Source of the DNA: Spizellomyces punctatus DAOM BR117
Taxonomy: Eukaryota
Direction: 5' to 3' (one strand)
Assembly: GCA_000182565.2 (NCBI GenBank)
Contig: KQ257451.1
Length of the DNA: 64,000 nucleotides
The notes under the pieces were generated by a model, which searched no databases, was not told the origin of the DNA, and saw only the letters and a list, made by a program, of their open reading frames with translations. The translations under genes and the position numbers were made by a program. This document shows positions 15,441 to 18,073 of the stretch, in pieces. Each line of letters begins with the position of its first letter. The stretch's first letter is position 1.

Positions 15441-15773
15441 GGTTATGTTGTTTTTGTCAGGAGGGCGAGGTCCTCGGCACCAGAGCGGCATTCTCATGAT
15501 GGACTTGAGAGTTGCTTGTGCGTTGGGCAGATGCTTCAAGAGTCGAGGAACTGGTGAGGAAGGGGAGAGAGAGCAGGTCCCCTTTTATAGACCTTCCGCA
15601 TGCACCTCACCGCAGTTTAAAAAAAAACATTACATGCATGCCACACCAATCTGAGCGATAGATGGGGGTTCTGATTATGCGATATGATTAACCGGATTAA
15701 TCCGGATAATATTGGTCCTAGTGCCATTTTCAATCACCTCCACACTATGTTCGTTTGATTAGATTGTAAGATA

Positions 15774-16082
15774 CAGCATGTGCATAAAAGTAGAGAGAAT
15801 CACGTGATTCACGTGGTGGTCTAGAATTCTAGTCTATTCTTAATACCGCGTCCACCATCCATTGGCATCTACCACAGCCTGCATACGTCTAGGCATAGAT
15901 TCTACAAGTTTAAAGAGGTAATTTGAAGATAAAGCTTGCGCATTCCAACGATGGCAGCACGCTTGTGTGAATCAAGCGCCATGCCGCCGCACCAGCAAGA
16001 GTCTTGGACGTCGACCACTGGGGTATAGATTGGCAGAGCATCACGTGCACACGTGATTCTCTCTACTTTTATGCACATGCTG
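15774..16082. mobile_element. MITE (non-autonomous Tc1/mariner-type), 309 bp, TA target-site duplication
   Basis: Perfect 33-bp terminal inverted repeats cagcatgtgcataaaagtagagagaatcacgtg (15774-15806; reverse complement at 16050-16082), extending imperfectly inward; TA on both flanks; no transposase ORF. Confidence 0.88.
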
Positions 16083-16255
16083 TACTGTACAAGATGAACA
16101 TTCTATTAGCCACACTGGTGAGGCACTTGACAATCATTCAGCCGGATGGAACCACCATTGGGCCAATCAGAGCGCGACAGCACGCTAACTAATACACACT
16201 CAAATACTGAACCTACGAGCCATCGTCTTTCATCCGGAACCGAAACAGTACGAAG

Positions 16256-18073
16256 ATGGGTACAAAAAAAACCTCGTTCTCCTTCCTACTATGTGTACTT
16301 GCTCTGTTGGGCACTGCTTCGTTCGTGCAGTGCGACTCCGAGCACGTTTTGGCGTTGACACCTAGTGATTTTGACAAGGTTAATACCCTGCAACAACTAT
16401 CTGAAAACGCGCTGATTCTGAACCATCTCGTGCTCATTCTACCAGCATGTTGATGGGAGTAAACCCGCCCTCGTAGAATTCTACGCCCCATGGTTCGTTC
16501 ATGACTTCATGCTTGCTTTTCGCATGGAAATGGCTACTGACTTTCAACTTTTTCTCTTTCCTCCTCAATTTCATCCAGGTGTGGTATGTGTTTACTGATC
16601 TCTTGCTAAATCTCGCTGCTAAGGGTCACTAATCTCATGTTGTCTTCACAGGACATTGCAGTTAGTATCATGGCATATCTCAATTCATTCACCGTTTAGT
16701 TTTGATTGGGATTTACTGATGCGTCCATATTCTACCCCTTGTCCGTCACTATTGAATTTCAGAGGTGCGTGAGCTGCTGTGTGTTTTTCCGATCAATATC
16801 AATACTCACGATTCATTGGCTTTTTGAATGACAGTCATTGGCACCGGTAGGTTCAAACAAGCAAAAGGATTTGCTGAGCATTGGTCTGACGTCTTTCTCG
16901 GAATAGATATATGAAGAGCTGGGTGCGGCTTTCGCCAACGCGAAGAACGACATTGTTATTGCAAAGGTTGATGCGGATGCGCATAAGGAATTGGGATCCC
17001 GATTTGAAGTCAGGGGATACCCAACCATCAAATGGTTCCCAAAAGGCTCAAAGACACCTGAAGATTACAATGGTGGTCGGGACTTGGACTCTTTTCTGAA
17101 ATTTATCGAAGAAAAATCTGGAATTAAGGCGAACGTCAAGAAACCACAAACTTTTGTTAAAGTGCTGACAAGCGGATCATTCGACGAGGTTGTCAAGGAT
17201 CCCAAGAAGAATGTGCTTGTCGAATTTTATGCTCCATGGTGTGGTACGTCCTTGTTTCGATACGCGATGTCGGCCGTAGAGCCTACTTCATCCACATTAT
17301 TGTTCATCAGGTCACTGCAAGAATTTGGCCCCTATATACGAAAAGGTGGCCAAAGATTTCGCTTTTGAGCCAAACTGTGTGGTGGCAAATGTGGATGCAA
17401 CAGCTGCACCCGATCTCGGGGAGAGGTACAATATTGCAGGTTACCCAACCATCAAATTTTTCCCAGCTGGAGGCGACCCAACATCACCCGAGGACTACCA
17501 GGGTGGTCGCTCTGAGGAGGATTTCGTCAAGTTTTTGAACGAAAAATGTGGCACTCATCGCACTGTAGGCGGTGGACTTACGGACCTGGTTCGTCTGTCA
17601 CTTGCAAAGATGCTCCTCAACCGTACAGAGGGATTAAAATTTTGTGCCGACTAGGCTGGGCGTATCGCTGCCTTGGACAAATTAGCGGCGAAATTTGTGG
17701 CCGCTTCTAAAGAAATTCGTGATAGCCTCATCGAGCAGGCCAAGGAAGCTCTAAAGGGCCATCCTTCCAAGTAAGAAGGAACGTGTCCAAGAGCTGTCAC
17801 TATTCACTAATGGATGTATTTTGCAGATTCTCCAAGTACTACCTTAAAGTGATGGAGAAAATTGCAAAGGGCAACGAAGCGTTCCCTGGGACGGAGATTA
17901 CCCGCTTGGAAAAGGTCCTCAGCACAGGCAACACGGACCCTTCCAGGATAGATAACTTCTTAATCCGAAAGAACATTCTCCAAGCTTTTGTGTCGGGGAA
18001 GACCCCTGCTAAAGAGGCCGAGAATGTGAAAATCGACGGCACATCTGACGCTAAAGATCATGAAGAGCTGTAG
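16256..18073 (+). CDS. Protein disulfide isomerase, a-a'-ERp29c type (ERp38/TigA-like), with ER-retention signal
   Basis: Signal peptide; two thioredoxin domains with [10 protein letters not shown] and GYPTIK; ERp29-like C-terminus (KYYLKVMEKI..EITRLEKVL..RKNILQAF); ends KDHEEL. Confidence 0.95.

Follow-up and report, generated by a model that had tools for sequence, protein, structure and literature searches.

The first active site of a Spizellomyces punctatus protein disulfide isomerase is probably encoded across four consecutive microexons

A gene for a protein disulfide isomerase (PDI) in the chytrid Spizellomyces punctatus DAOM BR117 raises a simple question: how is the catalytic motif of its first thioredoxin domain (domain a) encoded, if the exon leading into the motif stops within the tryptophan codon of WCGHCK and the next long exon resumes four residues beyond the lysine? 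The gene lies on the plus strand at positions 16256-18073 of the window, by which we mean the whole stretch of DNA analysed, 64,000 nucleotides (nt) of contig KQ257451.1 (assembly GCA_000182565.2). The answer that we favour, with a probability of roughly 0.8, is a split gene in which the domain a active site is built from four internal exons of 5, 9, 2 and 12 nt, a reading drawn from the genomic sequence. The 30 nt coding for WCGHCK and the SLAP that follows it are cut by five GT-AG introns of 60-102 nt, which, at five introns per 30 coding nt, is an extreme density.

The chain can be followed from exon 2 (16446-16492, 47 nt), which closes with the first two bases of the WCGHCK Trp codon and is followed by intron 2 (16493-16578; 86 nt, phase 2, GTTCGT..CAG, with a CTGAC branch-like motif). 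A 5-nt microexon (16579-16583) would supply the last base of Trp, the Cys codon and the first base of Gly, and intron 3 (16584-16651; 68 nt, phase 1, GTATGT..CAG) separates it from a 9-nt microexon (16652-16660) holding the rest of Gly, His, the second Cys and the first base of Lys. Beyond intron 4 (16661-16762; 102 nt, phase 1, GTTAGT..CAG, CTGAT), where read-through meets a stop codon in every frame in S. punctatus, a 2-nt microexon, AG (16763-16764), would complete the Lys codon and restore the reading frame. Intron 5 (16765-16834; 70 nt, phase 0, GTGCGT..CAG, CTCAC) leads to a 12-nt microexon (16835-16846) coding for S-L-A-P, and intron 6 (16847-16906; 60 nt, phase 0, GTAGGT..TAG, CTGAC) leads to exon 7 (16907-17243), which carries the rest of domain a, the linker and the start of the second thioredoxin domain (a′) as far as the first base of Gly in its own WCGHCK.

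This chain was proposed in an earlier note on the window, and its description of the pieces held up in full: coordinates and letters are all exact, as judged by reading the sequence and by scripted splitting, and the splice signals are where it placed them, with CAG before each piece (TAG before the exon at 16907), GT after each, and a branch-like CTNAY motif 17-43 nt from the 3′ end of each of the five introns. Once joined, the pieces do read WCGHCK and then SLAP, in frame with both flanks, but the domain a′ motif that the note had offered as their mirror image is not contiguous, being crossed by one intron (intron 7, 17244-17310; 67 nt, phase 1, GTACGT..CAG). The position and phase of intron 7 within the motif equal those of intron 3 in domain a. 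CGHC is thus read directly in domain a′, across one intron, and in domain a through the conceptual microexon chain alone.

To judge whether such a chain could arise by chance, we searched exhaustively for all chains of GT-AG (also GC-AG) introns that lead from 16491 to the fixed exon at 16907 and spell the WCGHCK and SLAP decapeptide. The search returned a single solution, the chain described above, which was unchanged whether the shortest intron allowed was 20, 30 or 40 nt, and none of 20,000 dinucleotide-preserving shuffles of 16493-16906 yielded any such chain. The splice signals of introns 2-6 also stand out from their surroundings. Counting both strands, the window has 7,348 GT sites, of which 5.9% fit GTNNGT; the donors do so in five cases of five (p ~7e-7). 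The acceptors are YAG in all five introns, where the background in the window is 43.5% (p ~0.016), and each of the five has CTNAY 8-55 nt upstream of its acceptor, as do 24% of AG sites. The decapeptide encoded by the microexons matches those of eight intact chytrid and blastoclad orthologues at 8-10 of its 10 positions, and over residues 27-56 the match is 17-23 of 30 positions.

The 2-nt exon as such is also likely to be real, to judge from the letters around it. It is the sole AG-AR-GT site in 16661-16834, where the window rate of 0.56 per kb predicts about 0.1. The same interval allows three canonical exons that restore the frame without a stop, and only the 2-nt AG gives Lys; the other two insert T-A or seven residues where every orthologue has Lys. 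Introns 2-6 are otherwise ordinary U2-type GT-AG introns, with lengths (86, 68, 102, 70 and 60 nt) similar to those of the other introns of the gene. All 10 pairs among them have similarity scores of z ≤ 2.5 against 200 shuffles, and a recent origin by intron duplication or from introner-like elements was dropped for want of any likeness among them. A separate, unanchored chain search returned a four-intron solution for the window that we regard as false: it makes a 557-nt jump into domain a′, and its pattern after Lys is loose.

The microexon chain completes a gene of ten exons, with an ATG at 16256 and a stop codon at 18071-18073, whose predicted product has 391 residues and a C-terminal HEEL. 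Exon 1 (16256-16378) holds the start codon, a hydrophobic run ahead of a Cys-Asp that is, by inspection, a likely signal peptide, and the start of domain a; it is joined to exon 2 across intron 1 (16379-16445; 67 nt, phase 0, GTTAAT..CAG). Downstream of intron 7, exon 8 (17311-17588) carries the rest of domain a′ and, after intron 8 (17589-17654; 66 nt, phase 0), exon 9 (17655-17770) begins an ERp29-type D domain that is finished, after intron 9 (17771-17826; 56 nt, phase 2), by exon 10 (17827-18073), together with the HEEL and the stop codon. The nine introns are 56-102 nt long, and those outside the microexon region 56-67 nt. The product is, on its predicted sequence, a PDI of the endoplasmic reticulum (ER) type with an a-a′-D architecture and WCGHCK in each of its two thioredoxin domains. 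Fungal members of this a-a′-D group go by the names TigA and ERp38.

Several comparisons agree with this assignment. The translation of exon 7 is 100% identical to part of a public 350-residue model, ‘protein disulfide-isomerase domain [Spizellomyces punctatus DAOM BR117]’ (XP_016611881.1/KND03842.1; P0001 hereafter), and our gene model equals P0001 letter for letter from SLAP through to the end. The Pfam Thioredoxin family (PF00085) matches two stretches of P0001 (E = 1.4e-45) and exon 7 alone (E = 4.1e-21), and the ERp29-type D domain (PF07749) is found in P0001 (E = 2.1e-23) and in exon 10 (E = 2.6e-14). Exon 7 has 52-76% identity to chytrid, plant and animal a-a′-D members bearing names such as PDI-like 2-1 and PDI A6, and the whole model is identical to the Gaertneriomyces protein at 240 of 377 positions. 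The C-termini of the orthologues are of the form xxEL, which is HEEL in S. punctatus. The predicted protein is like other a-a′-D PDIs throughout, and the gene structure alone is unusual. The split active site is supported, at the level of the predicted protein, as the only reading that would yield an intact, orthologue-like and secreted PDI from this locus.

The public model shows what becomes of the gene when the chain is not followed to its end. P0001 starts with MATDFQ, and its first 18 residues map by tblastn to 16530-16583, so that its false ATG at 16530 lies within intron 2. It uses the donor at 16583/16584, the 9-nt exon in the wrong frame (D-I-A) and the 12-nt exon, 16660 being joined directly to 16835. 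The result retains the ER tail but is without exons 1 and 2, the hydrophobic N-terminus, the 2-nt exon and the first WCGHCK. The S. punctatus annotation combined gene finders with RNA-Seq (PMC4991717), and the 9- and 12-nt exons of P0001 were presumably supplied by RNA-Seq alignments. An aligner may have been unable to place two bases that also form the end of intron 5, and the gene finder would then have added a false first exon that rescued the frame.

The expectation that gene finders would mis-annotate this domain was borne out beyond S. punctatus, as four further chytrid models are defective at the same site. Among the 121 proteins examined, eight are without a second WCGHC: five are chytrid genome models (two from Spizellomyces and one each from Rhizophlyctis rosea, Phlyctochytrium bullatum and P. 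planicorne) and three are short entries. P0087, P0099 and P0101 are 300-326 residues long with a single motif each. In four of the five defective models the N-terminal part of domain a is present and the motif is missing or replaced, and the S. punctatus model is without that part too. Intact models are found in Gaertneriomyces, Geranomyces and Thoreauomyces and in five more distant zoosporic fungi. The model from Spizellomyces ‘palustris’ (P0121, 456 residues) contains exon 1, as located by tblastn, and reads through introns 2 and 4, and it reads G-I-A at the 9-nt exon, residues that would imply a synonymous change in the true frame of that exon. To judge from the protein string, S. ‘palustris’ appears to keep the acceptor-AG-donor context of the 2-nt exon, with an insertion or deletion inside intron 4. 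The reference PDI protein of S. punctatus in NCBI, UniProt and EukProt has neither its likely signal peptide nor its first catalytic site. Such errors, found at the same place in at least four other chytrid models, pass on into surveys of the redox-folding machinery of early fungi.

A number of observations nevertheless weigh against a chain of four microexons. The public model, although informed by RNA-Seq, omits the 2-nt exon and exons 1 and 2, and S. ‘palustris’ is too close to S. punctatus for its agreement to count as real covariation. A search with exon 1 for a protein with the true N-terminus gave 24 candidates, none of which scored, and a near-length search with exon 7 gave 99 proteins at E ≤ 1e-30, with a best identity of 66% and none from S. 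punctatus. From a sample of about 6% of an RNA run labelled as S. punctatus (X13), the only one of the species available as raw reads, 37 reads, none longer than 60 nt, aligned to 16200-17650, of which 27 overlapped it only in part, and no splice joint passed the threshold for listing. However, no joint was seen at the undisputed introns 1, 7 and 8 either, and the depth over intron 8 equals that of its flanking exons, which suggests that DNA or precursor RNA is among the reads; because these positive controls fail, X13 is unfit as a test of splicing and counts neither way. Two further matches (X7 and X8) are contigs of DNA that run colinear with the window and contain the introns, and a root metatranscriptome (X1) contains PDI transcripts of other organisms, all but one less than 95% alike, which are uninformative on the S. 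punctatus gene and its habitat. Finally, mature messenger RNA (mRNA) alone cannot distinguish the 2-nt exon from a single GT..AC intron at 16661-16832, because the last two bases of intron 5 are also AG.

That single intron is the alternative that survives best, although we consider it quite improbable. Introns 4 and 5 would then be one intron of 172 nt, no 2-nt exon would exist, and the AG of the Lys codon would be 16833-16834, immediately before the 12-nt exon, so that the mature mRNA would be identical. A read aligner would put the two bases at this point, which may explain their loss from the public model. Yet 172 nt exceeds all nine modelled introns, and the sole AG-AR-GT site of the interval is accompanied, within 16760-16770, by a full acceptor (a pyrimidine-rich stretch and CAG) and a GTNNGT donor. 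Moreover, we know of no U2 class in which a GT intron has an AC 3′ end.

The chances are slimmer still that domain a is decaying, in which case the transcript would skip the 2-nt exon and yield a short product in a shifted frame, or else a protein truncated at its N-terminus that has the a′ site only. This would account for the join of 16660 to 16835 in P0001, and none of the proteins searched is transcript-derived with a full N-terminus. However, decay would hardly be expected to leave the coding pieces, the splice signals and exons 1 and 2 all intact and orthologue-like (17-23 of 30 residues, and 8-10 of 10 in the motif), in a chain that 0 of 20,000 shuffles reproduced. The two products are themselves problematic: if the 2 nt are skipped, translation from the true ATG meets a stop a few codons past the second Cys, and P0001 takes its start codon from within intron 2 and has no signal peptide despite its HEEL.

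Least probable of all is a switch superimposed on the normal form, in which the cell would regulate the skipping of the 9-nt exon, or of another microexon, to give a single-Cys or inactive domain a that acts as a redox or ER-stress switch. Skipping the 9-nt exon does keep the frame on paper, as the earlier note had pointed out, and runs of microexons are known to be used alternatively in animals (human RPS24). However, the note's idea of a splice-controlled redox switch is unsupported, and X13 yielded no isoform or junction that would point to it. Retention of intron 2, 3 or 5 (86, 68 and 70 nt) shifts the frame, read-through of intron 4 carries in-frame stops, and folding around the 2-nt exon shows no more structure than in shuffled sequences (z = +1.58). 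Fungi with short introns show mostly intron retention and less exon skipping, which also speaks against such a switch.

If the active site is indeed assembled from four microexons, how might exons this small be spliced? With introns as short as these (56-102 nt), splice sites would find their partners across introns (intron definition) rather than across exons. Only 2 nt separate the 3′ site of intron 4 from the 5′ site of intron 5, and 5 nt separate the facing sites of introns 2 and 3, so the factors bound to them would overlap; neighbouring introns would not be engaged at once and would therefore be removed one after another. Once one neighbour had been removed, the other intron would face an exon of normal size. 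Such stepwise removal would resemble recursive splicing, except that 2 (or 5) nt would remain in the mRNA. All four microexons would have to be joined to make the catalytic site, and their splicing is most likely constitutive; we infer both the splicing of the mRNA as modelled and the order in which the introns leave. An RNA structure that brings the splice sites together was considered and dropped, as folding of 16640-16860 revealed no special structure relative to shuffles, with the z-score already given. The locus offers a natural substrate for studying the minimum size of an exon under intron definition and the order of removal of neighbouring introns, in an organism that has been reported to be transformable.

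Intron positions in other genomes bear on how the chain may have arisen. We scanned metagenomes with exon 7, which gave 80 loci, and sorted these by a chain search for a 12-residue motif pattern: 51 have only uninterrupted motifs, 26 have at least one interrupted motif, and no motif was found in three. Four pairs of loci (L027/L028, L041/L044, L066/L067 and L068/L069) look like one sequence from sister samples and are not independent. In 19 of the 26 interrupted loci a lone intron splits the His codon of WCGHCK behind its first base (for example, at 3325 in L027 and at 204 in L070). Domain a′ is the usual site, and L029 (3002 and 3428) and L030 have the intron in both domains; S. punctatus does not use this position. 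We left uninterpreted the results for L041 and L044, which had 15 equal solutions, and for L060, which had a five-intron solution with introns of 238-451 nt.

The closest parallels come from a few of the remaining loci, in which the motif cases were checked by eye. In L066 and L067, whose best matches are plant PDI-like 2-1 proteins, a Trp-codon intron (phase 2) occurs in both domains, and in domain a′ a second intron directly after the Pro codon leaves a 28-nt exon (2487-2514 in L066) holding the whole a′ active site. The boundaries of this exon match those of S. punctatus introns 2 and 6 exactly, and domain a of the same locus has the Trp-codon intron only. In two eukaryote loci from metagenome contigs, the domain a motif is itself carried by two short exons. 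L038 has exons of 20 nt (814-833) and 12 nt (874-885), with introns of 33-40 nt in the Trp and second Cys codons, and L068, with its sister L069, has consecutive exons of 15 nt (2843-2857) and 13 nt (2918-2930), with one intron after Lys, as for S. punctatus intron 5. In all, four of the five S. punctatus intron positions have a counterpart elsewhere, one of these being in its own a′ domain.

These coincidences need to be read with care. Four open-reading-frame-style calls from other fungal contigs (P0122, P0125, P0129 and P0204) show apparent intron read-through at further sites, namely behind the second Cys and within the Trp and Ala codons, which, as far as protein strings can tell, hints that the motif is an intron hot spot. 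Because about 10 of some 30 possible intron positions in the motif are used in one lineage or another, the coincidence of any single position is weak evidence of common descent; the only broadly shared one is in the Trp codon (the plant-like loci, L038, P0129 and S. punctatus). The simplest reading may be that, within the chytrid line, three further cuts were made in an old, short active-site exon. A bolder version, which we think unlikely, is that the chain is old and maintained across chytrid orders (Spizellomycetales, Rhizophlyctidales and Chytridiales), the ancient 28-nt exon that is whole in plant PDIL2-1 having been cut three more times, and that its stepwise splicing acts as a kinetic gate on PDI output: splicing that is slow or unproductive, or an isoform with a single Cys, would adjust that output to the load on the ER. 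With introns at many different positions in different lineages, the motif is well suited to studies of how introns are gained, slide and are lost.

Whichever way it arose, the chain has partial precedents. Exons of 1 nt have been proven in the plant genes APC11 and VPS55 (PMC4674806, PMC8831610), and two adjacent microexons of 5 and 12 nt have been validated in rice (PMC8831610). Like the exons proposed here, those of APC11 and VPS55 are frame-essential and far under exon-definition size, with canonical sites and strong GTRAGT-like donors; they are constitutive, as those of S. punctatus presumably are, and their absence from reference annotations leaves predicted proteins with wrong or shorter N-termini. 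In contrast, the plant microexons are single, or at most two are adjacent, and they are proven by RNA-seq and reverse transcription polymerase chain reaction, whereas those of S. punctatus are four in a row within a catalytic motif and are predicted from the DNA alone. In Fusarium, the CYP621A P450 genes contain a 1-nt exon with read support from SRA (PMC12940212). This too is an ultra-short fungal exon inside a conserved motif, found comparatively since the frame fails otherwise, and missed by pipelines; it differs in being one exon of 1 nt, read-confirmed and from the Ascomycota, where the S. punctatus chain (5, 9, 2 and 12 nt) is from the Chytridiomycota. Human RPS24, with a run of three microexons of 3, 18 and 22 bp, resembles the chain in having several microexons in a row, although these are used alternatively, at the 3′ end of an animal gene and outside any catalytic motif, whereas the four of S. 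punctatus total 28 nt and are presumably constitutive.

Two further phenomena, recursive splicing and spliceosomal twin introns (stwintrons; PMC12403724), place splice sites side by side. In recursive splicing nothing is left between the sites, and in a stwintron one intron interrupts a splice signal of another. Both share with our model a 3′ and a 5′ splice site that are almost juxtaposed, and removal in steps. We rejected a recursive splice site at this locus, as the two bases between the sites are needed for the Lys codon, and likewise a stwintron, as a GTNNGT donor, a CTNAY motif and a YAG acceptor are complete within each of the five introns. A paper of 2024 describes functional microexons as previously undescribed in filamentous fungi (PMC11121469), and our search of the literature, which covered text outside subscription journals and supplements, found nothing on microexons in Spizellomyces or in PDI genes. 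Ultra-short exons (down to 1 nt) and, in plants, adjacent microexons are thus already known; what is new is a run of four inside a catalytic motif, an extreme case.

Two minor features of the surrounding DNA may be added. The G+C content of the genome is given as 47.6% in the genome paper (PMC4991717), the same as that of the window. About 165 nt upstream of the PDI start codon there is a 43-nt inverted repeat (15764-15806 and 16050-16092). Its arms are 93% complementary, lie 243 nt apart and each end in the palindrome CACGTG, and the repeat may represent a small foldback element, similar to a miniature inverted-repeat transposable element, or a feature of the promoter.

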